A stretch of 64,000 bases of DNA, from NCBI RefSeq assembly GCF_003991155.1, contig NZ_CP031293.1; one strand, given 5' to 3'. The first letter of the stretch is position 1. Every line of letters begins with the position of its first letter. Both the position numbers and the translations under genes were made by a program. Positions 7,032 to 50,094 of this stretch are shown in pieces. Source of the stretch: Escherichia coli (GTDB lineage Bacteria; Pseudomonadota; Gammaproteobacteria; Enterobacterales; Enterobacteriaceae). Below the pieces are notes generated by a model. The model saw nothing but the letters and a program-made list of their open reading frames with translations. It did no database searches and was not told where the DNA came from.

Positions 7032-7077
7032 CTTAAGTTCTCTGTAACTGGTAGTGCTAAAGGTGAGAGCTTCGGGG

Positions 7078-7836: not shown

Positions 7837-7898
7837 GATGTGATACCTCTGAAGACAGAAGATAAAAGTGAAAACAGGTGTGATGTGGTTGTGACGGG

Positions 7899-8375: not shown

Positions 8376-8389
8376 TGTTCCGGCCCCTT

Positions 8390-18616: not shown

Positions 18617-19151
18617 TTATTATATTTACAAATCGTAAGCCAGAATTGACTCCAGACCATTATGTGCCTTATTCACCATGAGTGAAATGCGGGATGAGCC
18701 TGCAAGTTAAGAGGATATCGGAAACCAGCAACCAGGGCAGTGAGAGCGCTGTCGGGGTCATTGATATCTCCGAAGGGAAGCCCTGGTATAAGGTGTTTGC
18801 ATAAAATTATTAAACAGGCTCATTTTTAGCGATCCTCATGAAATTCATCGTAACATCCTGAATATCTTATGGTGTTTCCTGTCATCTCCGGTATTTATTC
18901 CGTTCATGCAAATAACCTGATGAAACAGGGCAACGCCATAAAACCGGATAAGGACAACATGGATTAACGATAAAAATTGTGATCCTGTTTTCATTTTTCA
19001 CTTTTTGATTCTGGACTGGTATTTACATTTCTAAAAACAGGCATAAAGTGAACACATGTTTGATTTTGAATATATGTTCAACTCTATCTGCGTGGTCGAA
19101 TAGAAATACAGATTTATTATTTTTGTGTTTTTAAATGTCAGGAGATGTGCC

Positions 19152-21015: not shown

Positions 21016-21098
21016 TATAAATGAACGGGCAGTGTGAGGTCGCCCGAAATTACCTGAACCAGATTCCGTGTCTGGTTCAGGTATAAGGGGAGAGCATT

Positions 21099-22349: not shown

Positions 22350-22367
22350 AAAATACAATCCCGGGTG

Positions 22368-23462
22368 TTACCCCCGGGATGTTTTTAACAGATATTGCGC
22401 GTTATTAACGGAAAGTGTTGGGTTATTGATGCTGGTGCTGGCACGTGACAGTGCTGCACATGCCATCGCAAAGTGAGCACTTTCCTGGAAACTACTTCCT
22501 TCCAGAAAACTGTAAAGCAGACCTGCCATAAAGCCATCATCTGCACCAAAGCTGTCCACAACGGCATGAACGGGCGGTGTGAGCAGAAATTGTTCTCCCT
22601 CTCTTTGGCTACAGAAAACGGATTCATCTCCCATCCAGACAAAAATCTGTTGCACACCCTGCTGATGTAGTGCGTTCACTGCGGTGAGTAGATCGGTCTC
22701 ATTGTTGACAGGGGAACCCCATAATATCTCCAGTTCTTTTTGTGTGGGTTTCAGGGTATGGATATGCGGAAGCCAGTTTTTTACATTAACAGCCTTAAAT
22801 TTCGACACTGTATCAATAAAAACGGGAATGCCGTCAGCGACCGTAAAGATCCATTCAAGGGCGGCAGGTGTCAGATTACAGTCAGCCAGCACCACGCCAG
22901 CGTGACGGATTAACATACGTGAGGCGTCCAGCAACTGCGGCGTCAGTTGTTGCAGAATATGGGTATCATTAATCGCCATCACTGTTTCTGCCTGTAGGTC
23001 GGCGATGGAGACATAAGTTGAAGTATTTTGTCCGTTCAGTCGAATACAATTGGTGACATTAACGCCGGCCAGGCGGGTCTGCTCCAGTAATGTTTCGCCA
23101 TAAAAATCATTGCCTACAGCAGATATCAGATGCACATTGCGGCCCAGAAGGGCGAGATTATGGGCGATGTTGCGTCCGACACCTCCGGCAGAGCAGTAAA
23201 TACTGCCCGGACTGGAGGATTTCTGTGGATAATGGATATCCGCCACCCCACGGATATCCATGTTAATCGCCCCAAGAACAACACAGTATTCCTGTTCTGT
23301 CAGGATGTAGCCTTTCCCTTTAATCGCACCTTTGCGCATCAGATCCATAATGTGTGCAGCAACACGCGACCGACTGATTTGTAAAATCTCAGCAATTTCA
23401 TTCTGCTGGATCAGTGGGTTGTGACGCAGGATCCTGAGTATCTCTTTTTCTCTGTTGTCCAT
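22368..23462 (-). CDS. HTH-domain + PfkB kinase fusion protein (YeiI-like)
   Basis: 364 aa; N-terminal winged-helix (ILRILRHNPLIQQNEIAEILQISRSRVAAHI) plus PfkB kinase motifs. Confidence 0.75.
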   Translation of the reverse strand: MDNREKEILRILRHNPLIQQNEIAEILQISRSRVAAHIMDLMRKGAIKGKGYILTEQEYCVVLGAINMDIRGVADIHYPQKSSSPGSIYCSAGGVGRNIAHNLALLGRNVHLISAVGNDFYGETLLEQTRLAGVNVTNCIRLNGQNTSTYVSIADLQAETVMAINDTHILQQLTPQLLDASRMLIRHAGVVLADCNLTPAALEWIFTVADGIPVFIDTVSKFKAVNVKNWLPHIHTLKPTQKELEILWGSPVNNETDLLTAVNALHQQGVQQIFVWMGDESVFCSQREGEQFLLTPPVHAVVDSFGADDGFMAGLLYSFLEGSSFQESAHFAMACAALSRASTSINNPTLSVNNAQYLLKTSRG

Positions 23463-29398: not shown

Positions 29399-30646
29399 TT
29401 AGCCAAATTTAGGTAACACGTTAAAGACGTTACCGAACCAGCATAAAATTACGGTTATACCAAAGAGAATGACAATCGCCGGAATAAGATTGCCGCCCCA
29501 GACTGTGAACATCTGATTGGGAAATTTCTTGCGGGCTTTGATTGCCAGCACTGCGGGAATAATGACCGCCCAGATGGTGGCGCACAGTCCGGCACCGCCG
29601 ATCCCGTAAATAAAGCCGTTCGGGAAGATCAGATACAACAACGCGGGTGGCAGGAAGGTTAACAGCACGGTTTTGAAACGCCCGGCGTGGGAGTTATCAA
29701 TCTTAAACAGATCCGCCAGATAATCGAACAATCCCAGCGTGACACCAAAGAACGAACTGGCAACAGCTAAGTTAGAGAACACCAGCAGGCAAAACTCGAT
29801 AATCCCATGCTGTTTGGTGCCGAGGAATGATTTCACCAGCGAATCAACGTTGCCGCCTGAGGAGATTATCGCCTTAAAGCTTTCTCGCGGGATATTCCCC
29901 ATCGTGCAATAGAGCCAGAAGAGATAAATCACCAGCGCCAGCAGCGAACCGAAGACCACGCTTTTGATTAGCTTATCTTTGCGTTTTCCATAGCAAATAA
30001 TCAGGCTGGGAATATTGCCGTGGAAACCAAATGACGCCAGACACACCGGCAAAGCCATAAAGATATACGGGAAGTAAGACTTACCCGCAGTGGAGCTGGC
30101 TGCATCGCGCAGAATGGAATAATCGGCCTGGAAGAAGAGAGAGCCAAACACGATCACAAAGGAGATAATCTTCAGCCCGAGGAACAATGAGGTAATACGA
30201 CTGGCGGCTAACGAACTTATCCACAATACGCTGGCAACGAAAATGGCTGTGCAGACTCCGACAATACGTGGATTAGCGTGATAACTCAGATTCATTGATA
30301 TCGTTTCGCTAATGATTGCGCCGTTAGCAGAAATATAGGCATAAGTGAGGATATAGAGAACGAAGGCAACGGTAATACCGCTGATAATGTTCCAGGTGTT
30401 ACCGATTAAATCTTTGGCGATGGTGTTAAAACTGGATCCGACGGGATAGTTTAAATTTGCTTCTAATAACAATAACCCGGAATGAAGCATTGAAAACCAG
30501 GCAATGATAAGGATAAAGGCTCCCCAGAAAAACCAGGCACCGGCAAGATCAACAGGTAAAGCAAACATCCCACCGCCAATTACCGTACCGGCTATAACCA
30601 TAACACCCCAAAATGCAGAGTGTTTTTTTTCAGCTTGTTCAGTCAT
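29399..30646 (-). CDS. tnaB: Low-affinity tryptophan permease TnaB
   Basis: 415 aa; matches E. coli TnaB. Confidence 0.9.
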   Translation of the reverse strand: MTEQAEKKHSAFWGVMVIAGTVIGGGMFALPVDLAGAWFFWGAFILIIAWFSMLHSGLLLLEANLNYPVGSSFNTIAKDLIGNTWNIISGITVAFVLYILTYAYISANGAIISETISMNLSYHANPRIVGVCTAIFVASVLWISSLAASRITSLFLGLKIISFVIVFGSLFFQADYSILRDAASSTAGKSYFPYIFMALPVCLASFGFHGNIPSLIICYGKRKDKLIKSVVFGSLLALVIYLFWLYCTMGNIPRESFKAIISSGGNVDSLVKSFLGTKQHGIIEFCLLVFSNLAVASSFFGVTLGLFDYLADLFKIDNSHAGRFKTVLLTFLPPALLYLIFPNGFIYGIGGAGLCATIWAVIIPAVLAIKARKKFPNQMFTVWGGNLIPAIVILFGITVILCWFGNVFNVLPKFG

Positions 30647-30737
30647 GATGCCACCTTTAGATGAAGGCTATTTTTATTATTGAGGATGTAGGGTAAGAGA
30701 GTGGCTAACATCCTTATAGCCACTCTGAGTGTTTTAA

Positions 30738-32153
30738 TTAAACTTCTTTCAGTTTTGCGGTGAAGTGACGCAATACTTTCGGTTCGTAGGTAAAGGTTAA
30801 CCCTTTAATATTCGCCGCGTTCTCTTTCACATGTTTAAAGGCTTCAATAATGAAGTCCATATGTGTTTGAGTATATGTTGCGCGCGGAATGGTTAAACGC
30901 AGCAGTTCAGCCGGGCATGGCAGTTGTTTACCGGTTTTCGGATCGCGGCCTAACAGGAAAGAGCCAATTTCTACCGCACGGATACCGGCGACTTTATACA
31001 GCTCGCAGGCCAGCGCCTGTGCCGGGAACTGATCTGCCGGGATATGCGGCAGTAGTTTACCGGCATCAACGAATGCCGCGTGACCGCCCGCCTGCTGGCA
31101 GACAACGCCAATCTCTTCCAGGCCATCGACCAGATACTGCACCTGCGCAATACGATAAGCCAGCCAGTCCAGATTCATGCCGTCATACAGACCTACCGCC
31201 AGACGCTCCATAGCGCCGCCTTCCAGGCCGCCATATGTCGGGAAGCCTTCCTGCACCACGCAAAGGGTTCTGCATTCGGTGTACACATCAAAGAAGCTGT
31301 CGTCTTTCATGCACAGCAGGCCGCCCATCGGCACCATCGCATCTTTCTTGGCGGACATCGCCAGCATATCGGCATATTTGTAGGTTTCGCGGGTGATTTG
31401 CTCGATGGTCCAGTCTTTGTATTCTGCTTCACGCTGCTTGATGAAATAGGCGTTTTCGGCAAAGCGTGCGGAGTCCATTACCACCGGAATATCGTATTTC
31501 TTCGCGATGCTGTACATCGCTTTTAAGTTTGCCAGTGAAACCGGCTGACCACCTGCGGAGTTACTGGTGATGGTTGCAACGATATACGGCACGTTATTCG
31601 GGCCAACTTCTTCAATACCGCGTTCTAATCCCTCAAGGTCAAAGTTGCCTTTAAAGTCGTAACGCACGCCCGTATCGAAGGCTTCTTTGATATAGACGTT
31701 ACGCACGGTACAGCCGTTAATCTGGCTATGGCCCTGCGTGGTATCAAAGAAATAGTTAGAGAACGCCACCATTTTGCTGCGATCCAGGCCTTTTTCCTGC
31801 TCGCGTTTTTTAATCAGTACCGGAATATAGATTTGCTCTGCACCACGGCCCTGGTGAGTCGGAATAGTGTATTGATAACCAAAGATATTTTTCACTGACT
31901 CGGCTAACGCGTAGTAGCTGCGGCTGCCGCTGTAAGCTTCGTCGCCGCGCATCATCGCGGCCTGCATACTCTGCGTCACCGCCCCGGTACCGCTGTCGGT
32001 CAGTAAATCGATAAACACATCTTCACTATCCAGCAGGAACGGGTTCATGCCGGCTTTAATAATTGCTTCTTCACGATAAGCGCGAGTGGTACGTTTTACT
32101 GGCTCAATAACACGAATGCGGAACGGTTCAGGGAGATGTTTAAAGTTTTCCAT
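30738..32153 (-). CDS. tnaA: Tryptophanase TnaA
   Basis: ORF 30738..32168 trimmed to [11 protein letters not shown] (471 aa); matches E. coli TnaA. Confidence 0.9.
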
Positions 32154-32359
32154 TACGTAATCCTTCATTTATTTTAAGGACAGAAAATTACGGAGATATT
32201 GCAAATGCAATACCCGATAGTTCGCTAAAATATTTGCAAGAGACATCATTTATAAAAATGAATGATAGTCTTTACAAAAGCAGAAATAAGATATGCCAAA
32301 CAGACAGGTTAGATGGAATTCAATCTATTTGACAAAAATGATGGTTACAGAAAGGCAAG

Positions 32360-32434
32360 TTAAGGGTGGTGTTCAACAATCTTGTTGTCGATATTGAACC
32401 ATTTTGAGGTCACACATATATGTAAGATATTCAT
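32360..32434 (-). CDS. tnaC: tna operon leader peptide TnaC (24 aa)
   Basis: Minus-strand ATG AAT ATC TTA CAT ATA TGT GTG ACC TCA AAA TGG TTC AAT ATC GAC AAC AAG ATT GTT … CCT TAA gives MNILHICVTSKWFNIDNKIV..P with Trp12 and Pro24, ~205 bp upstream of tnaA. Confidence 0.75.
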   Translation of the reverse strand: MNILHICVTSKWFNIDNKIVEHHP

Positions 32435-36180: not shown

Positions 36181-36836
36181 TACTTATTTGGTGGACACCA
36201 CTTTGTCTAATTCGTCAGATTCTGACCAGACGGTTCAGGCTGTACGCTTACGTAGAACGCAGGTTCGTTTCGGTTCAGGATCGCGACAGTGCCCCCTCAC
36301 CTTCAGCTACAGTTCCCATAGAATTTTTTTCAGGTCAGTAATACTGGCTGCTGTTGTTGTCAGGATTTGATAGCTCATAAGCCCCGTTTGTCTTATTGGT
36401 ATAAGAGCATCTTTAAAAGCACTCTTAAAAGTACTCGTGTTGAAAAAACAGCCAGAACAAATGAAGTATGGCTCTTTCCGACAACTCTCTAAAACGTTCT
36501 GTAACACATTCTGAGCGTTTTTACGTCAGTTAGGCACGCCGCTCAGTGCTTCTGAGCGGCCTTGTTGCCGCGATCTGTTGTCCTGATCTTGATAAATGAA
36601 CATCAATACGGCGTTCCGTCAGTGTTTACAATAACTCCCAATTCATAACTACTTTTAACACATTTGTGTGATTCCCCCTTTCTGCTGAAAATATAGTTAT
36701 TTCCAATATAATCAATGAGTTTTATTAATTTGTTGATTTTTTTTTTCATGTTTTTTTTGTGATAATTATCATTTGAATGTGAATGTTGCTCCTGAATAAT
36801 GTTTATCAAAGTTGTCTGGTACGAGGGAGAAATTTC

Positions 36837-38099
36837 ATGGCTATCATCATGGGGATCATCGCTGACGATTTTACTGGCGCGACTGATATTGCCTGCTTTA
36901 TGGCAGAGAATGGTTTTCGGGTTGCGCTGTTGCCCGGTTTGCATGCACTCACGCAGTCATGGGATGAAGAGGCTGATGCAATAGTCATTTCACTGAAAAG
37001 TCGTTCATTACCCGCGAATCAGGCAATTGAGCAGACTTTGCTAAGTTATCATTGGTTGCGTGACTGTGCGGGGGCGCAGCAGATCTATTTCAAATATTGC
37101 TCAACATTTGATTCCACTGCAGATGGCAATATCGGCCCGGTCAGCGATGCACTGATGAAGGTGATGGGCACACCTTATGTCGTGCATTGTCCCGCTTTGC
37201 CCCAAAATGGCCGAACAGTTATCCATGGACATCTTTTTGTTAACGGTATACCCCTTAACGAATCCGGCATGGAAAAACACCCCCTGAATCCAATGACCGA
37301 CACTAACCTGCTGCGCGTACTGGCTGCACAAACCCCCAATAGAGTTGGTAATCTTGATCTGAGGACAGTTCAACAGGGCGAGCAAGCCATCACCACCGCA
37401 CTTTCCCGTTGTCAGGCTGAAGGGAAGCAACACATTATTGTCGATACATTAACTGAAAATGATCTGCAAAGCCTGGCAAATGTATTACGCCATACACCTT
37501 TACTGGCTGGGGGATCCGGACTGGGTGGGGCGTTAGCCGCTTTTTTACAGCAACATCCTTATACGCCAGCCTCCGCGTTTCCCAATCCTGCCAGAACGGT
37601 AATCTTCTCCGGAAGTTGTTCAGTGATGAGTAATCGACAGGTGGATGCTTATAAATCGCATGCAGCCACGCAGTTGCTTGATGTTGCTCGTTGTCTGGAC
37701 GATGGCAATAGATATATCGATCAATTACTTGAATGGACAATTGCGCACATCAATGATCCGCTTGCTCCGTTGATTTACGCCACTCAACCTGCGGATGTGT
37801 TGAAATCTATACAGCAAACCTGGGGTGAACACGCGGCAAGTAAAGCCATTGAACAAACTTTTGCGCAGCTTAGCCAAAAATTGCAGGTCGCGGGTGTCAA
37901 CACTTTTATTGTTGCTGGGGGAGAAACTTCCGGGACTGTAGTGGAAGCGCTAAATGTGAAACGGCTAACAGTGGGGAGCACTATTACGCCGGGCGTACCA
38001 TGGGTTTTTTCGGCAGAACCGCCCCTGGCACTGGCGCTGAAATCTGGCAATTTTGGGGAGCCTGATTTTTTCATTAAGGCTCAGGAGCATGGATTATGA
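36837..38099 (+). CDS. Four-carbon acid-sugar kinase family protein (DUF1537; OtnK/YgbK-like)
   Basis: ORF 36783..38099 trimmed to Met19 after a GAGGGAG ribosome-binding site; N-terminal MGIIADDFTGATD motif. Confidence 0.75.
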   Translation: MAIIMGIIADDFTGATDIACFMAENGFRVALLPGLHALTQSWDEEADAIVISLKSRSLPANQAIEQTLLSYHWLRDCAGAQQIYFKYCSTFDSTADGNIGPVSDALMKVMGTPYVVHCPALPQNGRTVIHGHLFVNGIPLNESGMEKHPLNPMTDTNLLRVLAAQTPNRVGNLDLRTVQQGEQAITTALSRCQAEGKQHIIVDTLTENDLQSLANVLRHTPLLAGGSGLGGALAAFLQQHPYTPASAFPNPARTVIFSGSCSVMSNRQVDAYKSHAATQLLDVARCLDDGNRYIDQLLEWTIAHINDPLAPLIYATQPADVLKSIQQTWGEHAASKAIEQTFAQLSQKLQVAGVNTFIVAGGETSGTVVEALNVKRLTVGSTITPGVPWVFSAEPPLALALKSGNFGEPDFFIKAQEHGL

Positions 38100-38734
38100 G
38101 TGAACTCATCGAACAAAAATTACGTGAACAACTCGTCTATTACGGGCGTTCGCTCTTTATGCGCGGTTTCAGTAGTGGCGGTTCCGGCAATATCAGCGTC
38201 AAACTGGCTGAAGACCGTTTTTTGGTCACGCCGACCAATTCCTGTCTTGGCGAGTTAGATAGTGAAAGAGTGAGTCTTATCGATATTCATGGCAACCATA
38301 TCAGTGGTGATAAGCCGTCAAAAGAGGTGCCTATGCATCTTGCCTGGTATCGACATCGTCCGAACTGTGGAGCGGTGGTACATCTGCACTCGCCATGGCT
38401 GACGGCACTTTCGTGTTTACCTTGCACAACACCAGAGAATTGCTTACCGCCGCTCACTCCCTATTACGTGATGCGTGTGGGGAAATTACCATTATTGCCT
38501 TATTTCAAACCAGGACATGAGGATATCGCTACGGCATTAAGCCATATAGCGGCCGACTCTACCGCAGCTCTGTTGGCGAATCATGGCCCCGTTGTCAGCG
38601 GAAGAACATTGCGCGAAGCGGTATTTAATGCCGAAGAGCTGGAAGACAGTGCCCGTATCTGGCTGACCTTAAAACCACTTGGCTATGTTCCTCTTTCGGC
38701 AAAAGACATCGCTGAACTGGAACAGGCCAGATGA
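38096..38734 (+). CDS. Class II aldolase/adducin-family protein (OtnC/YgbL-like decarboxylase)
   Basis: 212 aa; start overlaps the kinase stop; class II aldolase-fold motifs. Confidence 0.7.
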   Translation: MSELIEQKLREQLVYYGRSLFMRGFSSGGSGNISVKLAEDRFLVTPTNSCLGELDSERVSLIDIHGNHISGDKPSKEVPMHLAWYRHRPNCGAVVHLHSPWLTALSCLPCTTPENCLPPLTPYYVMRVGKLPLLPYFKPGHEDIATALSHIAADSTAALLANHGPVVSGRTLREAVFNAEELEDSARIWLTLKPLGYVPLSAKDIAELEQAR

Positions 38735-38749
38735 TAACGAGGTGAGAGG

Positions 38750-39556
38750 ATGATACCCGAGCAAAGGCGAGACTTTATTTACCGCTATGTCCATGAGAAA
38801 AACGTTGCTTCATTTAATGAACTGGCTGAGTTGATGAGCGTTTCGCATATGACAGTGCGTCGTGATATTCAATTACTGGAAGAAGAAGGCAAAGTTATTA
38901 CCATAAATGGCGGCGTTAAGCTGAACAACCAACTTAAATTGGAGTTACCGTGGCGAGAAAAAGCTGAACTGCATCATGATATTAAGCGTGACATGGGGCA
39001 GCTTGCTGCGATGTTGATCGAACCCGGGCAGACACTCTATTTAGATGCCGGAACCTCATTATTTGAGGTCGCAAAAGCAATCGTTGCCAGCCAGTGCTTT
39101 AATCTCACTATCGTGACAAATGATTTCTCTATCAGCCATTACCTGATGGATATGCAACATATCACGCTTTACCACACCGGGGGATTGGTAGATCAACGCA
39201 ATCGTTCTTGTTTGGGGAAAAGTGCAGCTGATTTTCTGCGCACGATTAATATCGATGTTGCATTTCTTAGCTCCTCTTCATGGGATACACAAAGAGGAAT
39301 GTCAACACCAAATGAAGGTAAAGCTACAGTGAAAGAGGCGGCGCTTACGGTCTCCCGTCGCCGCGTATTAGTGTGTGATAGCAGTAAATTCGGTAAATAC
39401 GGAATGTTCCATATATGCGAGCTCAGCCAATTGACCGATATCATTTCAGATAACCAGTTGCCTTTATCGGCGCAGGAAAGCATTACACAGCTGGGCGTGA
39501 AATTACATCTGGTTAATAGCCGGGAGGGAACGCAGCATGTTGAAGCTGGCGGCTAA
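38750..39556 (+). CDS. DeoR-family transcriptional regulator (YgbI-like)
   Basis: 268 aa; N-terminal HTH (…FNELAELMSVSHMTVRRDIQLLEEEGKV…) plus sugar-binding domain. Confidence 0.75.
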   Translation: MIPEQRRDFIYRYVHEKNVASFNELAELMSVSHMTVRRDIQLLEEEGKVITINGGVKLNNQLKLELPWREKAELHHDIKRDMGQLAAMLIEPGQTLYLDAGTSLFEVAKAIVASQCFNLTIVTNDFSISHYLMDMQHITLYHTGGLVDQRNRSCLGKSAADFLRTINIDVAFLSSSSWDTQRGMSTPNEGKATVKEAALTVSRRRVLVCDSSKFGKYGMFHICELSQLTDIISDNQLPLSAQESITQLGVKLHLVNSREGTQHVEAGG

Positions 39557-40313
39557 TCTCGACTGGTTGTTCACAGAACTGCCGATGTCTGCACGGTTTC
39601 ATGCAGCCAGACGGGAGGGGTTTCGTGCTGTTGAAGGAATGTTTTTCTGTCAGCATTCTCTGGATATGCTGAGAATTGCGCAGCAAGAATCGGGAATGAG
39701 CGTGGTGCTGATGAATGCTCCGGCAGGTGACTGGCTACGAGGTGAGCGTGGCCTGGCTGCACTTCCTGGCCGCGATGATGAATACCTGAACAGTTTGCTC
39801 ATTGCCCGCCGATATGCAGGGACGCTGGGATGCAGGCAGGTTCATGTTATGGCGGGCCTTCGGGATCACTCTGTGACAGAAGATGAACAACTGGAGTTAC
39901 TGGTTAATCGCTTGTGCATAGCCTGCGATGTGCTGGCGGAAAAAGATATTACAGTATTAATCGAACCCCTGAATTCTGAAGATATGCCTGGCTATATTAT
40001 TAATAGCCTTCCTCGAGCAAAAGATATTATCCGGCGGGTTTCTCACCAAAATATTGGTTTGCAGTTTGATATTTATCATTGCCAGAAAATTCATGGTAAT
40101 GTCACCCAAAATATAGATAAATATTTATCAATAGTTAAGCATTTTCAGATTGCCTCTGTGCCTGGTCGCCACGAACCAGGTTCTGGTGAGCTAAATGATA
40201 CGTGGATATTAAATTTTATTAATCAAAAAAACTTCCAGGGCTGGATTGGCTGTGAGTATAAACCTTCCACACTGACAACCGAGTCATTACGCTGGATGAA
40301 ACCATATTTATAA
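39537..40313 (+). CDS. Hydroxypyruvate isomerase-family TIM-barrel protein (OtnI/YgbM-like)
   Basis: 258 aa, xylose-isomerase-like TIM barrel; overlaps regulator stop. Confidence 0.65.
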   Translation: MLKLAANLDWLFTELPMSARFHAARREGFRAVEGMFFCQHSLDMLRIAQQESGMSVVLMNAPAGDWLRGERGLAALPGRDDEYLNSLLIARRYAGTLGCRQVHVMAGLRDHSVTEDEQLELLVNRLCIACDVLAEKDITVLIEPLNSEDMPGYIINSLPRAKDIIRRVSHQNIGLQFDIYHCQKIHGNVTQNIDKYLSIVKHFQIASVPGRHEPGSGELNDTWILNFINQKNFQGWIGCEYKPSTLTTESLRWMKPYL

Positions 40314-40334
40314 AATCTTTTTCTGGAGGAAAAT

Positions 40335-41147
40335 ATGTCGGATACCGTCATAATTTCGTTGGCACCTGTGGCCGCAGACTGCACCAGAGTCATACCCGAA
40401 GAATTGGCGCAGGAAATTTTGGCTTGCGTTGAATATGGAGCAGCAATTGTTCATTTACACGTTCGTGATAAGCAAGGCAAGTTAACGCCAGATACAACCG
40501 ATTTCCAGTCAACCATTGATCTCGTCAGACATCAATCAGACTTAATTATTCAGGCTTCTACGGGCGGAGTCTCTGCCATGTCAATAGCCGAGCGTTGCGC
40601 GCCTCTGGACTGCCCTGGCGTTGAAATGGCGTCGCTGAATGTAGGGTCGGTGAACCTTGGTGATGCCGTCTACGCTAATCCAACACCGGATGTCGAATAT
40701 TGTTCACAGCAAATTACCGCGCGTAGTATTGTTCCTGAATTTGAAGTGTTTGAAATTGGAATGGTTAATAATATTTTAACCCTCAATGAAAAGATAAAAT
40801 TCAGAAACCCCATGTTATTTAATATTGTACTTGGTCATAGAGGAAGTTCTCCGGCGACAATAGATGCATTAATTGCGATGCGCAGTATGATCCCGCGAGA
40901 TGCATTATGGGGTATTACTCACTTTGGCAGAAAGAATTTTGATGTTATTGCTGCTGCGGTAGCTATGGGAGCTAGCGAGGTCAGAATTGGTTTTGAAGAT
41001 AGTTATTATTTAAGTGCAGAGGAGATGGCGGAACAAAATTATCAGCAAGTTAAAAAACTCGCCAGACTTATTCGTAGTATGGATAAACAAGTGGCCTCAC
41101 CGGAAATTGCCCGACGGATATTAAATATCCCAATCCGGCAGCAATGA
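40335..41147 (+). CDS. Beta-keto acid cleavage enzyme (BKACE/DUF849, 3-keto-5-aminohexanoate cleavage enzyme family)
   Basis: 270 aa; …AAIVHLHVRDKQGK… resembles the BKACE metal-binding motif. Confidence 0.6.
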   Translation: MSDTVIISLAPVAADCTRVIPEELAQEILACVEYGAAIVHLHVRDKQGKLTPDTTDFQSTIDLVRHQSDLIIQASTGGVSAMSIAERCAPLDCPGVEMASLNVGSVNLGDAVYANPTPDVEYCSQQITARSIVPEFEVFEIGMVNNILTLNEKIKFRNPMLFNIVLGHRGSSPATIDALIAMRSMIPRDALWGITHFGRKNFDVIAAAVAMGASEVRIGFEDSYYLSAEEMAEQNYQQVKKLARLIRSMDKQVASPEIARRILNIPIRQQ

Positions 41148-41168
41148 CGACAGACAGGACATTTTACT

Positions 41169-42479
41169 ATGACTATAACAACCCTAATACAAAAAGCAGG
41201 ACTTACAATCTGTATAGCTGGCGGTGTACTCGCGGCAACAGGCGGGTTGATGCAATCCGCTGTGCTCTGGCAACCTGGATTGGTGATGCTTACTGCAGGC
41301 TTTGCCCTCGGTGCTGGTTACTGGCCGATACTTCGAAGTTATCAATTCACGTTATGGATTATCGCAGGTTTCGTGGCTGCGATGACCTGGTCGATGGATT
41401 TGATTGTCTGGGGCGGGTTTAACATTACTCACAAATGGATCGTGTTTTTAGTCATTCAGGCAACGATGTTCAGTATGGGTACCAAACTGACGATTCAGGA
41501 TTTTATCGATGTTGCCAAAATGCCATGGGCGGTGTTTATTGGCACCTTCTGCCACTTTGTGATTATGCCGTTGCTGGGGCTAACCATTACGCTGTTATTT
41601 GATTTTCCGCCAGAAGTTGCGGTGGGGATCCTGCTCATAGGTGCCTGCCCTAGCGGTTTATCATCAACTGTTATGGTTTATATCGCTAACGCGAACCTCG
41701 CGCTGGCGGTATCAATCGCCGCAGTTTCTACGCTGGCAGCAACGGTTATGACGCCGTTGTGGGTAAATTTGCTGGCTGGCTCCATGATTGACATCCAACT
41801 TACCGCAATGGTTATGGACGTGGTGAAAATTGTCCTTATACCAATTGGTGCAGCAATTTTGCATGACTACCTGAAAACGTACGCTGGAGTTCGAGGTCGA
41901 CGAACCGTGCAGCTTCTCGCCGGGATCTGCGCCCTGTGGCTAATTTACATGAGCTCTGGTGGTTGGGACTATCTCTTTGACAACGCCAGTGCAGACGTAC
42001 AAATGTATGCCGTGGTACTGAACTTTGTCACGGGTGGCATTGTATGGGCGTTGTTCTATAACTGGCTGTACAGTCGCGTGGAAGGCATTCAAAAGATTAT
42101 GCCAACCATCTCTATGATTGGGATCATCTTCTTTACCACCACCGCTGCGGCAGCTGGTCGTGATAACCTGTTGCAGGTTGGTTTCCTGCTTTGTTTCGCC
42201 ATGTTGTTGCATAACCTTGGCGGTTTCCTGATTGGCTATCTGATGAGTCGCTGGATATTCCGCATGGACGAACAATCGTCCCGTACCGTAGCCTTTGAAG
42301 TGGGATTGCAAAACGGAGGTATGGCGTCAGGTCTGGCAGCGGCAATGGGCAAACTGGCTACAGTTGGCCTTGCCTCTGCAGTCATGACACCTCTCGGCAA
42401 TGTGAGTGGTTCGCTGTTGGCAAACTACTGGCGCAAAAAAGACGCTCGTAAAGCACAGACTGCGAATAAAGACAAATAG
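41169..42479 (+). CDS. BASS-fold (bile acid:Na+ symporter-like) membrane transporter
   Basis: 436-aa polytopic protein; …GACPSGLSSTVMVYIANANLALAVSIAAVSTLAA… resembles BASS crossover motifs. Confidence 0.6.
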   Translation: MTITTLIQKAGLTICIAGGVLAATGGLMQSAVLWQPGLVMLTAGFALGAGYWPILRSYQFTLWIIAGFVAAMTWSMDLIVWGGFNITHKWIVFLVIQATMFSMGTKLTIQDFIDVAKMPWAVFIGTFCHFVIMPLLGLTITLLFDFPPEVAVGILLIGACPSGLSSTVMVYIANANLALAVSIAAVSTLAATVMTPLWVNLLAGSMIDIQLTAMVMDVVKIVLIPIGAAILHDYLKTYAGVRGRRTVQLLAGICALWLIYMSSGGWDYLFDNASADVQMYAVVLNFVTGGIVWALFYNWLYSRVEGIQKIMPTISMIGIIFFTTTAAAAGRDNLLQVGFLLCFAMLLHNLGGFLIGYLMSRWIFRMDEQSSRTVAFEVGLQNGGMASGLAAAMGKLATVGLASAVMTPLGNVSGSLLANYWRKKDARKAQTANKDK

Positions 42480-42514
42480 TCTGCCTGTTGTAACCTTTCA
42501 AAAGGAAACTCAAT

Positions 42515-42934
42515 ATGACGACATTGACCCTGAAACAAGCATTGCTTGCAGTAGAGTATGCGCTTGATCTTGCAGTGCAACAATATGCTGGCCGTCCTTT
42601 AAGTGTGGCAGTATGCGATGTTAATGGTGAATTGCTGAGCTTTGCCCGCATGGATAGAGCCAAACTGTTAACTATTGAATTAACGCAGCGTAAAGCACGA
42701 ACCAGTAGTCGTCTGGGCTGTACGACAGCAGCATTCTTACAGCGTCTACAAAAAGAGCAACTTGATATCAGCTATTTTGGAGATCCCCGGTTTACCGCAT
42801 TACCAGGAGGGATCCCTATTCTGGTTAAAGGAAAATGCATTGGTGCTGTTGCTGTGGGGGGATTATCCGCACGAGAAGATCATGATGCGGCACAGGCTGT
42901 CGCAGATAAACTGCTTGAGGAGATGACCAAATGA
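42515..42934 (+). CDS. GlcG/HbpS-like protein (DUF336)
   Basis: 139 aa; …GGIPILVKGKCIGAVAVGG… typical of GlcG-like proteins. Confidence 0.65.
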   Translation: MTTLTLKQALLAVEYALDLAVQQYAGRPLSVAVCDVNGELLSFARMDRAKLLTIELTQRKARTSSRLGCTTAAFLQRLQKEQLDISYFGDPRFTALPGGIPILVKGKCIGAVAVGGLSAREDHDAAQAVADKLLEEMTK

Positions 42935-43581
42935 AAAAAATAGCCATGCTTCACACCAGTTCAGCCACGCTTGCGGTGATGCAACAACTGATAGGCGATA
43001 TCATGCCTGAGGCTGAAGTGATGCATCTGGTTGAGGAGTCTATGATTAAGCAGGTGATGAAAGCGGGCGGTGTTACGCCAGATATCGCCGCACGGATCGC
43101 TGATTACATACGGATCGCTGAAAAAGCCGACTGCGATATTTTCATTACCGCTTGTTCATCAATTGGTACTGCTGTCGAACAGTGTCAATTTATGACTTCA
43201 GTACAACTGGCACGGATTGACTGTGCGATGGTGGATGAAGCAATCAACAAAGGGGAACACATTGCTGTGCTGGCAACGGTGGCCACAACGCTGAAACCGA
43301 CGCTTGATTTTGTCCGGCGAAAAGTTCAGGAAAGTGGAAAACAGCGGATTATTACACCTGTTTTAATGGAAGAAGCCTTCCATGCGTTATTGAATGGTGA
43401 TATGGGAACGCATGACCGCATTGTGAGTGAAGGATTACAAAAGGCCTTTGGGCAGGCAGATGTTATTATGTTAGCGCAGGCATCGATGGCACGGGTGCTG
43501 CAAAATATGCCTGAGCCTCCGGTTCCGGTATTAACATCGCCAGAAAGCGGTATTCGCTGGTTGAAAACATTCGCGAGTTAA
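42931..43581 (+). CDS. Asp/Glu/hydantoin racemase-family enzyme
   Basis: 216 aa; start overlaps GlcG stop; conserved Cys-containing ACSS segment. Confidence 0.6.
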   Translation: MKKIAMLHTSSATLAVMQQLIGDIMPEAEVMHLVEESMIKQVMKAGGVTPDIAARIADYIRIAEKADCDIFITACSSIGTAVEQCQFMTSVQLARIDCAMVDEAINKGEHIAVLATVATTLKPTLDFVRRKVQESGKQRIITPVLMEEAFHALLNGDMGTHDRIVSEGLQKAFGQADVIMLAQASMARVLQNMPEPPVPVLTSPESGIRWLKTFAS

Positions 43582-44157: not shown

Positions 44158-44455
44158 AGTCTCCTTTCTCAAAATCAGGCTTCGTGCATCTGGTCACAAA
44201 CCCGTATATCAATCATCATTGATGAGAAATTATCTTTATGAGGGCGTTTTTTTGGTTTCAGTTTTGCACGGAACCAGGAGATTTTTGGGAGTTGTTTTAT
44301 GTATGTTGTAAATAAAATTTTAATATTGACATCTACTGTACGTGCATAGAGTACGCCGGTGACCAACGTCAGCATTCCACTGTTCCAGTAACTAATTAAC
44401 GTAAGTGAAGTTATCGAGGAAGCAATACTGGATGGAGAAGTCGTCCTTGAGGTAT

Positions 44456-44737
44456 TCACTTTCCTTTCGTTCTGCCCATTAGTGGACAGCTAACTAGTGG
44501 CAGGACATCGGAGTACAGCACCTTCCCGTTGTTATTTATCAGCACGGCAGCTTTCTGGTTATTGACGAGCACAGTTTTCACGCCGCCGCCAAAGTTGTGG
44601 AAGACTCGCACCAGTGACTCATGGGTATGTTCAGCATCCTGTATGGGGCAGCAAAGAGATAGAAGCGACGTGAGAACCCCCTGCGTATTAGTCGCGAAGT
44701 TAATGCAGCATCGTTGTCTGACCAGTACCCCAGTCAT
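44456..44737 (-). pseudogene. IS21-family IstA transposase fragment
   Basis: …DAEHTHESLVRVFHNFGGGVKTVLVNNQKAAVLINNNGKV… matches the IstA segment …DAEHTYESLVRAFRYFGGCVKTVLVDNQKAAVLKNNNGKV…. Confidence 0.55.
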
Positions 44738-44952
44738 GCTGGAGCTGGTAATCCGGCTGAGTTTTGAAGCGAACCGTTTTCTTCGATTTCCGTCTGGGAA
44801 GTAATCAGACTCAGCACGGACAAAAATTGCAGCGCCCGGATGGCACGGGTAATGGTCAGATTACCGGATGCGGATTAGGTGCCGCGTAGTGAAGCGCGCC
44901 GGATTCAGAGTCGCTAGTATGGTCATACAGCGAAGGAAAGCCGCCAATTTTT

Positions 44953-45225
44953 GTGCCGGACGTGGAATATACAGCGAATGCTGATGTAAAAGGCGCTCGT
45001 AATATTTTAGCTGCGGGACATACTGTGCTTGCCAGGGAAGGGATGGTGCAGTCAGACCACCCGTTGAAGCGAAATGAACCTGAACCATACGACAACCTGA
45101 AAGTAGCAGGAATCCACGCCCTGAAGGACGTGGAGGAAGTCAAATCGATGGTAGGTTGTAGGTTTATGGCAACATCTGCTTCATTAGATACATGTCGATA
45201 TACAGAACATATATCACATTTATGA
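44953..45225 (+). pseudogene. 3' fragment of an IS200/IS605-family tnpB (RNA-guided nuclease) gene
   Basis: …ANADVKGARNILAAGHTVLAREGMVQ… resembles the conserved TnpB C-terminus; no N-terminal part upstream. Confidence 0.4.
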
Positions 45226-45903
45226 ATTTTCTTTTATCCTGCTATTTTGGGGTTTATTGTGAAAGTAACTTTCAAGAACAGGCAGATAGTACCAGGATTC
45301 AGGATGTTTTTTCAGGAATTCATTTAAAAATGATTGCATTGTTAAATATAAATCTTTGTTATTTCCTTTATGTATAAAATCATAAATCCACACGTAATTA
45401 CTGTAATTAGAATCAAAGTATGATGCAATAAAATACGCATTAGCACCTGCGCGTCTTACAATATATTCCCAACCACCGTGCAACCATGCTTTCTTATTCA
45501 GTAGACAAGCTTCTCTTACAGAACCATAGTTTTCGCTACTATACACTGAGGGTATATCTGGTAATATAATCAAATTAGCTCCGTTTTTTACAAGCTTAAT
45601 CATGGCCTTTATTTCTGTAATGCCATTTTTTTCGAAAACAGTAATCTGATGCCCAAGTCCAGAAAGTGAATGTATTAATTCCAACTCATTGAGACCATTT
45701 ACAGAACTTCTATAAAAAATAAAATGTGAGTTAGATTTATATGAAAGTAGAATTTTATGAATGGCTGTCCAGTATTCACCAGAATGTAAAACTACAAACA
45801 CAGAATTATTAAGTGTTTTATGTAATGCATCCAAAAAACAGTCTTCATATATAAATTTTGTACGGTGTGCATACTCATGAAGGGTATTCATAGACACAAT
45901 CAT
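45220..45903 (-). CDS. Orphan hypothetical protein, 227 aa, AT-rich (weak resemblance to LpxL/LPLAT-type acyltransferases)
   Basis: Uninterrupted ORF in low-GC DNA; family assignment uncertain. Confidence 0.5.
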   Translation of the reverse strand: MIVSMNTLHEYAHRTKFIYEDCFLDALHKTLNNSVFVVLHSGEYWTAIHKILLSYKSNSHFIFYRSSVNGLNELELIHSLSGLGHQITVFEKNGITEIKAMIKLVKNGANLIILPDIPSVYSSENYGSVREACLLNKKAWLHGGWEYIVRRAGANAYFIASYFDSNYSNYVWIYDFIHKGNNKDLYLTMQSFLNEFLKKHPESWYYLPVLESYFHNKPQNSRIKENS

Positions 45904-45983
45904 TTTAGCCCTATTACTGACAATAATGATAATTGATATTCTGAGCGTATCGAAAATAAGTCCGAATTATCAGAAGGTTTATT

Positions 45984-46756
45984 ATGAAAATACTCATTGC
46001 AGGGGCAACCGGAAGTATTGGTCTTCATGTCGTGAATACCGCTATTGAAATGGGTCATCAGCCCGTGGCGCTGGTCAGAAATAAACGCAAAGTAAAATCT
46101 CTTCCTCGTGGAACAGATGTTTTTTACGGCGATGTTTCAATGCCGGAAACACTCACCGAATTGCCGAAAGATATTGATGCCATCATCTTCACTCTCGGTT
46201 CTGATGGCCAGGGGCGTATTGGTGCCAGAGCGATCGATTACGGAGGAGTGCGTAATATTTTGCGAATATTCAGGGATACACCTGTTCGTATCAGCTAATG
46301 ACCACGATTGGCGTGACTGAGCGGCTCAGCACTTGGAATCAACGCACTGAGGTTCATGACAGGAAAAGACGTGCCGAGCGTCTGGTCAGGGCCAGCGGTC
46401 ATCCCTATATTATCGTCCGGCCCGGCTGGTTTGATTACAACAATGATGATGAACACAGGATCGTTATGCTTCAGGGGGATCGTCGCCATGCAGGAACACC
46501 GGAAGATGGTGTGATATCCCGGGAGCAAATCGCCCAGGTTCTGGTCAGTGCCCTGACCAACGACGAGGCAAAAAATAAAACGTTCGAGCTGGTGGCTGAA
46601 CGAGGTGAAGCACCACAGGATCTTACCCCACTGTTTGCAGAACTGCAGACTGATGATGCACAAAAAAATGATGGGGTTCTGGACATAGACAATATGCAGC
46701 TGAGAGAAGAACCGGAGTGCATTATTAACGAGCTGAACCTGTATTCAAAAAATTAA
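45984..46756 (+). pseudogene. NAD(P)-binding SDR/NmrA-like oxidoreductase gene split into two ORFs (104 aa + 152 aa)
   Basis: N-terminal Rossmann motif GATGSIGLHVV in ORF1; ORF2 continues the same fold in a different frame; ORFs overlap at TAATG (46296-46300). Confidence 0.5.
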
Positions 46757-46897
46757 ACAATCTACAACCCTGACAATTTTGTCATATAGCGGTCAGCCTC
46801 ATGACAGTTTAAGTCTGTATATTTACATACACAAACGGGGATAGTTCCCTTGATACGAATCCAGTTTTAAACATAGATTTTAAAAGAGGTATTAAAT

Positions 46898-47149
46898 ATG
46901 AAAGCATTACTTATTACTACATTGGTCATGGGGTTTATTTCAGTGAATGCCGCATCTGCAGCTCAGGAAATTAACCATGCAGATGGGAAAGAAAAGATAG
47001 GTGTAGTCTCAGCCAGCAATGCCTATACGCTTGATGAATTATCGAATACGCTTTCTCGTAAGGCTGATGAACAAGGAGCAACATCGTTCAAAATTCTGTC
47101 AACCACGGGGAATAACCGGCTGCACGGGGTTGCTGAAATCTATAAGTAA
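46898..47149 (+). CDS. DUF1471 (YdgH/BhsA/McbA-family) periplasmic stress protein
   Basis: 83 aa with signal peptide and the family's C-terminal …FKI.S..G.N.L.G.AEIYK motif. Confidence 0.7.
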   Translation: MKALLITTLVMGFISVNAASAAQEINHADGKEKIGVVSASNAYTLDELSNTLSRKADEQGATSFKILSTTGNNRLHGVAEIYK

Positions 47150-47205
47150 ATCATTAGTATCCTGAGCAGGATGTGTCTTAACCCTCTTATAGCGAGCGTC
47201 GATTT

Positions 47206-47541
47206 ATGTTTAGAACAGAAGACATCATCGATGAGATAACCCAATGGATTGATTCAAATTTACATAAGCCGCTGAAGATAGAGGATGTTGCTGCGCGGGC
47301 AGGATACTCGAGGTGGCATCTTCAGCGGATTTTTGTGCAGGTGAGAGAAATTAGCCTTGGGAAGTACATAAGAGATACGAAACTTAGACTTGCAGCAAAA
47401 GATCTTATCGCGACTAATGAGCCAGTGATGGTTATCGCCTTTAAATATGGATTCGATTCACAACAAACTTTTACTCGGATTTTCTTTAAAAAATATAAAT
47501 TGCCACCATTGAAATATAGGGTAATGACTCCAACTTATTGA
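47206..47541 (+). CDS. MarA/SoxS-like small AraC-family regulator, C-terminus replaced by IS1 insertion
   Basis: 111-aa ORF with two HTH motifs; its last 7 codons lie inside IS1. Confidence 0.6.
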
Positions 47542-48038
47542 TAGTGTTTTATGTTCAGATAATGCCCGATGACTTTGTCATGCAGCTCCACCGATTTTGA
47601 AAACGACAGCGACTTCCGTCCCAGCCGTGCCAGGTGCTGCCTCAGATTCAGGTTATGCCGCTCAATTCGCTGCGTATATCGCTTGCTGATTACGTGCAGC
47701 TTTCCCTTCAGGCGGGATTCATACAGCGGCCAGCCATCCGTCATCCATATCACCACGTCAAAGGGTGACAGCAGGCTCATAAGACGCCCCAGCGTCGCCA
47801 TAGTGCGTTCACCGAATACGTGCGCAACAACCGTCTTCCGGAGCCTGTCATACGCGTAAAACAGCCAGCGCTGGCGCGATTTAGCCCCGACGTATCCCCA
47901 CTGTTCGTCCATTTCCGCGCAGACGATGACGTCACTGCCCGGCTGTATGCGCGAGGTTACCGACTGCGGCCTGAGTTTTTTAAATGGCGGAAAATCGTGT
48001 TGAGGCCAACGCCCATAATGCGGGCGGTTGCCCGGCAT
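47535..48038 (-). CDS. insB: IS1 transposase InsB
   Basis: 167 aa matching IS1 InsB. Confidence 0.9.
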
Positions 48039-48232
48039 CCAACGCCATTCATGGCCATATCAATGATTTTCTGGTGCGTACCGGGTTGAGAAGCGGTGTA
48101 AGTGAACTGCAGTTGCCATGTTTTACGGCAATGAGAGCAGAGATAGCGCTGATGTCCGGCGGTGCTTTTGCCGTTACGCACCACTCCGTCAGTAGCTGAA
48201 CAGGAGGGACAGCTGATAGAAACAGAAGCCAC
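47957..48232 (-). CDS. insA: IS1 InsA
   Basis: 91 aa matching IS1 InsA (zinc finger CPSC…CSHC). Confidence 0.9.
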
Positions 48233-48522
48233 TGGAGCACCTCAAAAACACCATCATACACTAAATCAGTAAGTTGGCAGCATCACCGAAATATAGAAAC
48301 GCGGAAAGGAGAAAAAAACTTCACCAGCCCATGTCTTAAGTTCTGTCAGTATGGCTACAGCCTGTTTGCTGAGTGGCACAAGGTGTGGTGTTCGAATCTT
48401 GGTTCCCCAATGAGAGTTCAGGCGGTGTGGGCAAATAAAAAAGAAAACATAAATAAAACCATCCGACCGTTGGTGGGGCTGGATGGTTATTCATTATTTC
48501 TATGTCACTGAACTTTCATTCA

Positions 48523-49704
48523 TCAGATCTGCTCAGAAAGTGAATCAATGTAGTCAGCATACCACTGCATCATTTCACGGCGACCATCCAGATACTGGGC
48601 ATGATTATAGGTACCTCTGATAGCGTTTTTATCCATATGAGCTAACTGCATTTCAATCCAGGCAGAATTAAAGCCCTGTTCGTGCAGAATTGTACTCATG
48701 GTGTGTCTGAAACCGTGCCCTGTGAGTCTTCCCTTATATCCTAGTAATTCAATGACTTGGTTTATGCTTTCCTTACTAATTGGTTTGCGAGGATCGTTCC
48801 TACCGATAAAGACCAGAGGATGATGTTTTGAGATTGGTTCAAGTTGCTTAAATAGCGCAATGACCTGCTCAGAGAGCGGCACAATATGAGGTCGCTTCAT
48901 CTTCATTACTTCTGCCGGGATCTCCCATAATTTTGTCTCAAAATCGATATCCTCCCAGCGTGCGAAACGCAATTCTTGAGTTCGTACACCAGTTAGCATA
49001 ATGATTTGAGTGGCTGTCTTAGTGATAATACTTCCGGTATAACCCGCCAGATCATTGAGGAAGTGGGGAAGTTCATTAGCAGTAAGAAAGGGAAAATGTA
49101 CTTTTTTCGGTGTAGCTAAAGCACTGGCAAGATCGGGAGCAGGGTTGTAGTTAGCCCGACCAGTAACAATTGCATAGCGGAACACCTCTCCACAGCGCTG
49201 GCGGACCTTACGCATTTTCTCCAGAGCTCCACGTTTTTCCATTTTACGCAATGCTTCCAGTAACTCCATTGGTTTGATTTCAGCAATAGGGCGTTTGCCA
49301 ATATAGGGAAAAATATCTTTTTCAAAGGTATCAATGATTTCATCACGATAGCGTAATGACCACCGATCGGCTTTTGACTGATGCCATTCTCGAGCAACGG
49401 CCTCAAATGTGTTTTTCAAACTCATTTGCAGCGCGATTTTTTCTTCTTTTTTTGTCTCACCCGGATCGCATCCTGCAGCGAGGATTTTCCTAGCTTCACT
49501 GCGTTTTTCGCGAGCGTCGGCTAGAGTTACATCGGGGTATACGCCAATAGAAAGCATCTTTTCTTTGCCAGCAAAGCGGTACTTCATACGCCAATATTTA
49601 GAACCATTAGTGTTAATGAGTAGATACATACCGCCACCATCAGACAGCTTATAGGGCTTTTCTTTTGGTTTTGCGGTTTTCACTTTAATATCAGTTAACG
49701 CCAT
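48523..49704 (-). CDS. P4-type tyrosine integrase (site-specific recombinase)
   Basis: 393 aa; catalytic HGFRHT and C-terminal Tyr region; immediately adjacent to selC. Confidence 0.9.
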   Translation of the reverse strand: MALTDIKVKTAKPKEKPYKLSDGGGMYLLINTNGSKYWRMKYRFAGKEKMLSIGVYPDVTLADAREKRSEARKILAAGCDPGETKKEEKIALQMSLKNTFEAVAREWHQSKADRWSLRYRDEIIDTFEKDIFPYIGKRPIAEIKPMELLEALRKMEKRGALEKMRKVRQRCGEVFRYAIVTGRANYNPAPDLASALATPKKVHFPFLTANELPHFLNDLAGYTGSIITKTATQIIMLTGVRTQELRFARWEDIDFETKLWEIPAEVMKMKRPHIVPLSEQVIALFKQLEPISKHHPLVFIGRNDPRKPISKESINQVIELLGYKGRLTGHGFRHTMSTILHEQGFNSAWIEMQLAHMDKNAIRGTYNHAQYLDGRREMMQWYADYIDSLSEQI

Positions 49705-49998: not shown

Positions 49999-50023
49999 TT
50001 GGCGGAAGATCACAGGAGTCGAA
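49999..50023. repeat. attL core: 25-bp direct repeat overlapping the 3' end of selC
   Basis: Identical to 4873..4897. Confidence 0.8.
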
Positions 50024-50094
50024 CCTGCCCGGGACCGCTGGCGGCCCCAACTGGATTTGAAGTCCAGCCGCCTCACCGGAGACGACGATCTTCC
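50000..50094 (-). tRNA. selC: tRNA-Sec (selenocysteine tRNA)
   Basis: Reverse complement matches the 95-nt E. coli selC sequence GGAAGATCGTCGTCTCCGGTGAGGCGGCTGGACTTCAAATCCAGTTGGGGCCGCCAGCGGTCCCGGGCAGGTTCGACTCCTGTGATCTTCCGCCA. Confidence 0.95.

Follow-up and report, generated by a model that had tools for sequence, protein, structure and literature searches.

The window analysed here, a 64,000-nucleotide stretch of Escherichia coli DNA, carries a mosaic genomic island of ~45 kb whose attachment site is the tRNA-Sec gene selC (50000–50094, minus strand; ARAGORN). An intact P4-type tyrosine integrase gene (48523–49704, minus strand; Pfam Arm-DNA-bind_3, Phage_int_M and Phage_integrase) adjoins selC, and a 25-nt direct repeat of the selC 3′ end stands at 4873–4897 and 49999–50023, giving the island both hallmarks of a tRNA-integrated element, namely an integrase adjoining a tRNA together with a far-boundary repeat of the tRNA 3′ end. 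Beside this integrase and 1.7 kb from selC lies a 2.45-kb patch of a gene module read on the plus strand. It consists of an NmrA-type SDR gene (45984–46756) split by a frameshift at ~46298 into two open reading frames (ORFs; 45984–46298 and 46298–46756), a gene for a DUF1471 (YdgH/BhsA/McbA-like) protein (46898–47149; PF07338, 1.5e-18) and, directly downstream of the latter, a gene for a RamA-like single-domain AraC-family regulator (HTH_18, ramA_TF). The regulator gene retains its native codons 1–105 (47206–47519, the last codon being completed by the next base), is then interrupted by a complete IS1 element of 768 bp (47520–48287) and has its displaced 3′ end on the far side of the element (48297–48339, plus strand), where 48297 is the third base of the R105 codon, 48298–48336 encode the tail and 48337–48339 form the stop. 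The interrupted locus had been predicted to span 47206–48296; the latter position marks the end of the right copy of the target duplication, and the displaced gene tail continues to 48339.

Homologous modules occur in Klebsiella, Enterobacter, Citrobacter, Cronobacter, Kosakonia and some E. coli, and comprise two aldo-keto reductase genes, a divergent LysR gene, an NmrA-type SDR gene (257–263 aa), a gene for an 83-aa DUF1471 protein and, in last position, the regulator gene, followed downstream by variable genes and in many cases an integrase. The DUF1471 and regulator genes are constant partners, their order and spacing being conserved in the loci of other species. The window lacks the aldo-keto reductase and LysR genes, and DNA homology to the module of other Enterobacteriaceae (90–92% identity) extends, across the empty IS1 site, from 45869 to exactly 48319. 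The SDR frameshift is shared with E. coli 2016C-3878, a strain with an empty site, where the gene is annotated as ‘SDR family oxidoreductase, frameshifted’, while relatives encode intact proteins of 257–263 aa. Since the homology patch is partial, the SDR gene is frameshifted and the native stop codon of the regulator gene was lost to an integrase relic (see below), the module was already in decay when IS1 arrived. A promoter and terminator scan of 45700–48600 gave counts at background, the only sites returned being the known promoter-like site in the IS1 IRL and, ahead of the DUF1471 gene, a weak one; we accordingly propose no native promoter or terminator.

The regulator has the traits of the MarA/SoxS/Rob/RamA subgroup, a lone DNA-binding domain of ~100 residues that contains two helix-turn-helix motifs and is joined to no separate sensor domain, and matches the Pfam families HTH_18 (residues 29–106, 1.7e-19) and HTH_AraC. 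The original prediction of a MarA/SoxS-like regulator struck at its 3′ end thus holds at the level of the subgroup, but the closest relative is RamA, with NCBIfam scores of 153.1 bits for ramA_TF against 124 for Rob, 120 for SoxS and 107.8 and 106.6 for MarA. All of these scores lie below the equivalog cut-offs, which are 180 bits for RamA (NF012144), 174 bits for SoxS (NF007584) and 202 or 250 bits for MarA (NF008564 and NF012198), and it is because the protein falls below the RamA cut-off that PGAP names it merely a ‘helix-turn-helix domain-containing protein’. Among structures in the PDB the top match is Klebsiella pneumoniae RamA (7bef, 3.4e-37), followed by MarA, Rob and SoxS, and the alignments to all four cover the entire domain. 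The protein shares 56% identity with K. pneumoniae RamA (over 104 residues), 47.5% with MarA and 45.5% with the N-terminal domain of Rob, and it conserves both recognition helices (RWHLQRIF and QQTFTRIF, compared with KWHLQRLF and QQTFTRVF in RamA). Judged by these sequence relationships, the protein is best described as a RamA paralogue, a more precise designation than MarA/SoxS-like, and when intact it would probably act as a marbox-type activator, as RamA does. Members of this subgroup act at marbox-type sites on acrAB, tolC, micF and related genes, and it is the conserved recognition helices that suggest such an activity here. A scan of the window for the marbox consensus returned 16 matches where chance alone predicts 19.7, and none of them lies near the module.

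The inserted element is a standard IS1 of the IS1B type, with its transposase genes on the minus strand, and shows the length, the ~23-bp terminal repeats, the InsAB′ frameshift and the 9-bp duplication of its family without any difference; the original prediction of an IS1 is borne out by each of these features and by its Pfam domains (Zn_ribbon_InsA, HTH_Tnp_IS1 and the IS1-type DDE domain DDE_Tnp_IS1). Its imperfect terminal inverted repeats match at 18 of 23 positions (left, GGTAATGACTCCAACTTATTGAT at 47520; right, as reverse complement and ending at 48287, GGTGATGCTGCCAACTTACTGAT), and it is oriented with the IRR end against the regulator gene and the IRL end at 48287. The genes insA (48232–47957) and insB′ (48038–47535) are linked by an intact A6C frameshift motif at IS1 position 307, where a simulated −1 shift opens a 232-aa InsAB′ fusion frame. 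Many chromosomal and plasmid IS1 copies of E. coli are 100% identical to it, including those annotated by PGAP as ‘IS1B family’ in 2016C-3878, where they lie on both the chromosome and a 277-kb plasmid, and donor copies therefore exist in the lineage. IS1 is multicopy in these genomes (median of 11 places per genome), and no second copy was found within the 64-kb window.

IS1 favours AT-rich targets and usually duplicates 9 bp, occasionally 8. Here the element is flanked by perfect copies of the 9-bp sequence GAAATATAG (47511–47519 and 48288–48296), an identity expected by chance at these fixed positions with a probability of ~4e-6; the target is A/T at seven of nine positions and covers codons 103–105 of the regulator gene. 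Excising IS1 together with one repeat copy in silico yields a 118-codon ORF with the end that the original prediction had given, and its product is the same as WP_061092946.1, the 118-aa ‘helix-turn-helix domain-containing protein’ of E. coli 2016C-3878 (NZ_CP029747.1). In that strain the empty site is exact, with a single copy of GAAATATAG between contiguous flanks. The two genomes are collinear, with 1 mismatch in the 47,519 nt of 1–47519 and 0 mismatches in 48288–49126 (99.998% identity across the region), the regulator stretch 47206–47519 is 100% identical to the uninterrupted allele, and IS1 plus 9 bp is the sole structural difference. The predicted in-situ insertion with a 9-bp duplication is hereby confirmed as a simple event free of deletion or rearrangement. 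An IS1-mediated deletion or a composite transposon is ruled out by the single IS1 in the window and by the contiguity of the flanks at the empty site.

As the original prediction had proposed, the uninterrupted allele could be compared in other strains: a megablast search of 5426 complete RefSeq E. coli genomes revealed 21 in which the two flanks directly adjoin each other at 100% identity, and none with IS1 at this site. In a wider public collection the uninterrupted protein was counted on 372 contigs and the IS1-fused protein on 32, and the fused 111-aa product is already deposited (AZR86989.1 and others) as ‘helix-turn-helix domain-containing protein, partial [E. coli]’. We read at least 24 contigs with the fused protein and displayed the junctions for eight assemblies. 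The left junction is identical in all eight, the right junction is also present in the two long, megabase-scale contigs, and the short-read contigs stop inside IS1, as expected. One of the two long contigs, CP134912.1, agrees with the window at 100% identity across 6.3 kb; another carrier of the IS1 allele (GCA_028736835.1) has a second IS1 in its DUF1471 gene, with the duplication GTCTCAGCC at window positions 47006–47014. A single junction shared by every copy fits one insertion event followed by clonal inheritance, and we infer that the IS1 allele descends clonally from one event and marks a lineage.

Comparison with other species further indicates that the uninterrupted allele itself has an unusual end. 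In relatives the gene closes with ...GAAAAAAAC AC TAA (KKH*), giving the tail NAEKRKKH, whereas in the window it reads ...GAAAAAAAC|TTCACCAGCCCATGTCTTAA (KK|LHQPMS*). The displaced tail is native regulator sequence (NAERRKK) only to 48319, where module homology stops; the final LHQPMS* comes from the antisense strand of a relic of a second P4-type integrase of ~32 codons (48320–48415, minus strand, ...HLVPLSKQAVAILTELKTWAGE). From 48320 onwards the DNA corresponds at 90–96% to tyrosine-recombinase genes found in hundreds of E. coli, and it also matches a longer integrase relic adjoining selC in strain 2014C-3011 (93.8%). PGAP marks a partial pseudogene at the relic in 2016C-3878, and the ...HLVPLSKQAVAILTELKTWAGE of the relic parallels ...HIVPLSEQVIALFKQLE of the intact integrase. 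The stop of module homology at 48319 together with the integrase match from 48320 shows that an older rearrangement removed the native last codon and stop. The uninterrupted allele is accordingly a chimera of the regulator gene and the antisense strand of an integrase relic, so that of the restored ORF, originally taken as the intact allele, the NAERRKK portion is ancestral and the LHQPMS* ending is not. Other natural alleles of the regulator gene have different 3′ junctions (...KKLTF, ...KKLNCRR and extensions of 28–30 residues), the module recurrently having its edge at this point. We also considered 48340–48410 (...GGTGTTCGAATCTTGG...) as a tRNA 3′ fragment and rejected it; ARAGORN finds no tRNA there, and the stretch is the antisense of the integrase relic.

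The ORF now present (47206–47541, plus strand) encodes a 111-aa fusion of 105 native residues and VMTPTY, with its stop codon inside IS1. The last ~12 codons had been thought to be replaced; the tail is indeed replaced, and the exact exchange is of 13 displaced codons, encoding NAERRKKLHQPMS, for six IS1-encoded codons followed by a stop (VMTPTY*). The last native residue kept, R105, is invariant in an alignment of 33 family members, in which all invariant and near-invariant columns lie at or before it. To call the gene truncated, as was done at first, is correct in that the tail is lost but overstates the damage, given that the native sequence survives through the last invariant residue and that 111 aa is within the usual family length (relatives have 111–113 aa). 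Among 93 homologues with the C-terminal motif, the tails after R105 measure 4–30 residues, mostly 6–8 (for example NAEKRKKH, NAKKIK and NTEKIKKH), and nearly all hold lysines or arginines; the fused tail has six residues and no basic one. Intact homologues that stop where the native part of the fused version stops were not encountered, as none of the 93 ends at R105 or has a tail of zero length. The natural C-terminus of SoxS corresponds to residue 108 of the regulator, three residues past the equivalent arginine (in a conserved YR).

AlphaFold2 predicts seven helices for both the restored and the fused protein (mean pLDDT of 91.9 and 90.7, respectively), although the method is insensitive to destabilizing changes, which makes an unchanged predicted fold weak evidence. 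Both helix-turn-helix motifs are intact in the fused protein and the last helix alone is shortened, predicted helix 7 spanning residues 101–113 (13 residues) in the restored version and 101–107 (7 residues) in the fused one, with the mean pLDDT of residues 101–110 falling from 96 to 84. Positions 31, 75, 76 and 84, which correspond to polymerase contacts in RamA, all lie upstream of the cut. We lean, by a modest margin of confidence, towards a fused protein that still folds and binds DNA, because conservation stops at R105, the same helices are predicted, SoxS manages with a short tail and the RamA contacts lie upstream. The loss of all basic residues and of half of the predicted last helix could nevertheless affect stability or DNA binding.

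Taken together, we propose that a resident IS1B-type element transposed recently into the AT-rich target GAAATATAG at codons 103–105 of a horizontally acquired RamA-like activator gene located ~1.7 kb from selC on the 45-kb mosaic island. The insertion leaves residues 1–105 in place, with both helix-turn-helix motifs, every invariant residue and the beginning of the final helix, while exchanging the basic NAERRKKLHQPMS for the neutral VMTPTY, and the regulator mRNA would now end inside IS1. We hold with high confidence to the structural part of this account, a simple transposition of a resident IS1 that left a tail-swapped 111-aa protein. An assembly artefact or a larger IS1-mediated rearrangement, such as a deletion or a composite transposon, might be suspected from the multicopy nature of IS1, as repeats are a common source of misassembly, yet it deserves next to no credence in view of the perfect 9-bp duplication, the contiguity of both flanks in the empty-site strain, the recurrence of the left junction in eight of eight independent assemblies and of the right junction in two long contigs, and the absence of any other IS1 from the 64-kb window.

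What the insertion did to the regulator, and why it persists, is a matter of more graded judgement. The loss of the basic tail and of half of helix 7, an altered 3′ end of the mRNA and antisense transcription that may issue from IS1 might together abolish activity, and such a true knock-out is a reading that we keep tentatively as a real possibility. It would fit the observation that no homologue has fewer than four residues after R105, lysine or arginine nearly always being among them, the drop of predicted helix 7 from 13 to 7 residues with falling confidence, the direction of IS1 transposase transcription, which runs antisense toward the regulator gene, and the ‘partial’ tag given to the product by PGAP. 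Against it stand the placement of all invariant and near-invariant columns at or before R105, the activity of SoxS with just three residues past the equivalent arginine, the upstream location of the known RamA polymerase contacts, and the character of the tail itself, which is the least conserved part of the protein and has been swapped for unrelated sequence several times in natural alleles (...KKLTF, ...KKLNCRR). A selected change is a different matter: altered activity or turnover, or the silencing of a costly activator, may have been favoured in an E. coli lineage from clinical or wastewater settings, and the dozens of contigs with the IS1 allele could come from a clonally expanded lineage where selection had favoured it. 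The recurrence of the allele, seen in different samples and on 24 contigs or more, and the position of the insertion exactly at the boundary of the conserved domain speak for such an adaptive tail swap, as does the precedent of acquired RamA homologues, such as plasmid RamAp, that change host gene expression and resistance.

We nonetheless regard an adaptive swap as very improbable. One junction in all copies is consistent with one event and clonal descent, the surrounding module was already degraded, the second IS1 in the DUF1471 gene of one carrier points to continuing erosion, and a target with seven A/T positions out of nine is what IS1 prefers. Moreover, the Lon-dependent turnover of MarA, SoxS and RamA proceeds via N-terminal, not C-terminal, residues. 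A bolder extension, in which the module, carried by integrase-bearing islands in several genera, would be a mobile cassette regulating stress or efflux, its RamA paralogue switching on the host mar/sox/rob regulon in the manner of plasmid RamAp and the IS1 tail swap having been selected for its effect on the activity or stability of that activator, strikes us as very improbable. The most likely reading is that the IS1 insertion is a neutral, not an adaptive, step in the erosion of island cargo, because the module was decaying before IS1 arrived, with genes absent, the SDR frameshifted and the native stop lost; the insertion would then be the latest step in a stepwise erosion.

At one level this is an ordinary IS1 insertion in accessory-genome cargo, both alleles of which are already deposited and annotated. 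The near-isogenic empty-site strain makes the insertion a clean lineage marker, and the natural tail-swap allele offers a way to find out whether RamA-type activators need their variable, basic C-terminal tail. To our knowledge, E. coli is a species without a chromosomal ramA. The locus also draws attention to a horizontally mobile, uncharacterized RamA paralogue in E. coli that, if active, could influence efflux-mediated multidrug resistance; in the literature we found nothing specific on this RamA-like paralogue, its locus or a comparable C-terminal IS1 insertion.

Among known systems, RamA of Klebsiella, Salmonella and Enterobacter (PDB 7bef/7beg) shares with the regulator described here the single AraC/XylS domain, the two helix-turn-helix motifs and a length of ~113 aa. 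The RamA residues that contact the RNA polymerase alpha C-terminal domain or sigma region 4, as identified by mutagenesis, are H31, Y75, D76 and D84 (PMC8811837). The window regulator differs at several of these positions, having R31 in place of the alpha C-terminal domain contact H31 and M75/V76 in place of Y75/D76, and also in its neighbourhood, as ramA genes adjoin ramR/romA, whereas the window gene follows the DUF1471 gene and the NmrA-type SDR gene of an island-borne module. MarA, SoxS and the N-terminal domain of Rob share the fold and size class of the regulator but are more distant from it than RamA. They are moreover encoded by core genes, unlike the island-borne window regulator, which has no MarR- or SoxR-type partner gene. 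Identity with the plasmid-borne RamAp was considered and rejected, since no plasmid-borne copy in PLSDB exceeds 60% identity to the regulator and no plasmid there carries a close copy. RamAp, carried on IncHI2 and other multidrug-resistance plasmids, is nonetheless a comparable case, being described as an acquired RamA-like regulator in E. coli and Salmonella that is shaped, in expression or structure, by an adjacent insertion sequence (PMC13253676). In that case a truncated ISEcp1 lies upstream of RamAp and raises its expression, whereas IS1 in the window sits in the 3′ coding end of the regulator gene.

The regulator gene into which IS1 is inserted, a RamA-like, single-domain member of the AraC family, belongs to a 2.45-kb patch of a conserved module (45869–48319, IS1 excluded) that shares 90–92% identity with other Enterobacteriaceae, where the module comprises two aldo-keto reductase genes together with those for a LysR regulator, an NmrA-type SDR, a DUF1471 protein and the RamA-like protein. 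The patch is cut at both ends, on one side just within the intergenic region between the LysR and SDR genes and on the other a single codon short of the native stop of the regulator. Immediately beyond the latter cut, in the stretch separating the regulator from the intact integrase, lies a relic of a second P4-type integrase (about 32 codons, 48320–48415, minus strand). The ‘uninterrupted’ regulator allele draws its final six codons and its stop from the antisense strand of this relic, which has a longer, 453-bp counterpart next to selC in E. coli 2014C-3011 (locus L010).

The NmrA-type SDR gene (45984–46756, plus strand) is frameshifted at about position 46298, leaving ORFs of 104 and 152 amino acids. 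The same frameshift is found in the empty-site strain E. coli 2016C-3878, where PGAP annotates the gene as ‘frameshifted’, and it is therefore older than the IS1 insertion. Adjoining the module, at approximately 44200–45100, the annotation of the near-identical strain places short remnants of two genes, one for an IncFII RepA and one for TnpB/InsQ, which suggests plasmid- and IS-derived debris within the island.

A second IS1 was found in the DUF1471 gene of one strain carrying the IS1 allele (GCA_028736835.1, locus L003, 2033–2800), at a target corresponding to 47006–47014 in the window. This copy belongs to another variant (98.7% identity), has the same orientation and is flanked by a 9-bp duplication, GTCTCAGCC. 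The empty-site strain has an identical IS1B copy elsewhere on its chromosome (NZ_CP029747.1, 4197748–4198515; hit H97), where it overlaps another gene annotated as an AraC-family regulator and distinct from the RamA-like gene.

Among the other alleles of the regulator family, P0068 switches to an unrelated C-terminus at about residue 70, and some alleles add 17–30 residues beyond the basic tail; P0068 and P0108 are encoded on the same 4.69-Mb E. coli contig. The variant C-termini noted for P0068, P0108, P0009, P0015 and P0003 indicate independent disruptions or junctions at the regulator gene in other strains.

The island as a whole spans about 45 kb and lies between setC and selC. Its two boundaries are marked by the 3′ end of selC, 25 nt of which occur as a direct repeat (4873–4897 and 49999–50023). 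A RhuM gene fragment is located between the distal repeat and setC. The distal end carries a CP4-57-like block (5033–9953) encoding DUF4942, DUF957, DUF5983, the toxin CbtA and antitoxin YeeU, RadC, an antirestriction protein and DUF932.

The island also carries other genes. A cluster at 36783–43581 (plus strand), annotated as 3-oxo-tetronate kinase (otnK), an aldolase, a DeoR regulator, a hydroxypyruvate isomerase-like protein, a 3-keto-5-aminohexanoate cleavage protein, a member of the bile acid:sodium symporter family, GlcG and an Asp/Glu racemase, looks like an acid-sugar catabolic operon. The annotation of the 99.998%-identical strain places a tnaC-tnaA-tnaB tryptophanase operon at 29399–32434 (minus strand), with IS66 and IS110 debris on its flanks; this would be an additional copy if the core tna locus is retained in the genome as well. 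Genes for a pseudouridine kinase, a pseudouridine-5′-phosphate glycosidase, a NupC-type transporter and a sugar kinase (19125–23462) look like paralogues of the core psuK, psuG and psuT.
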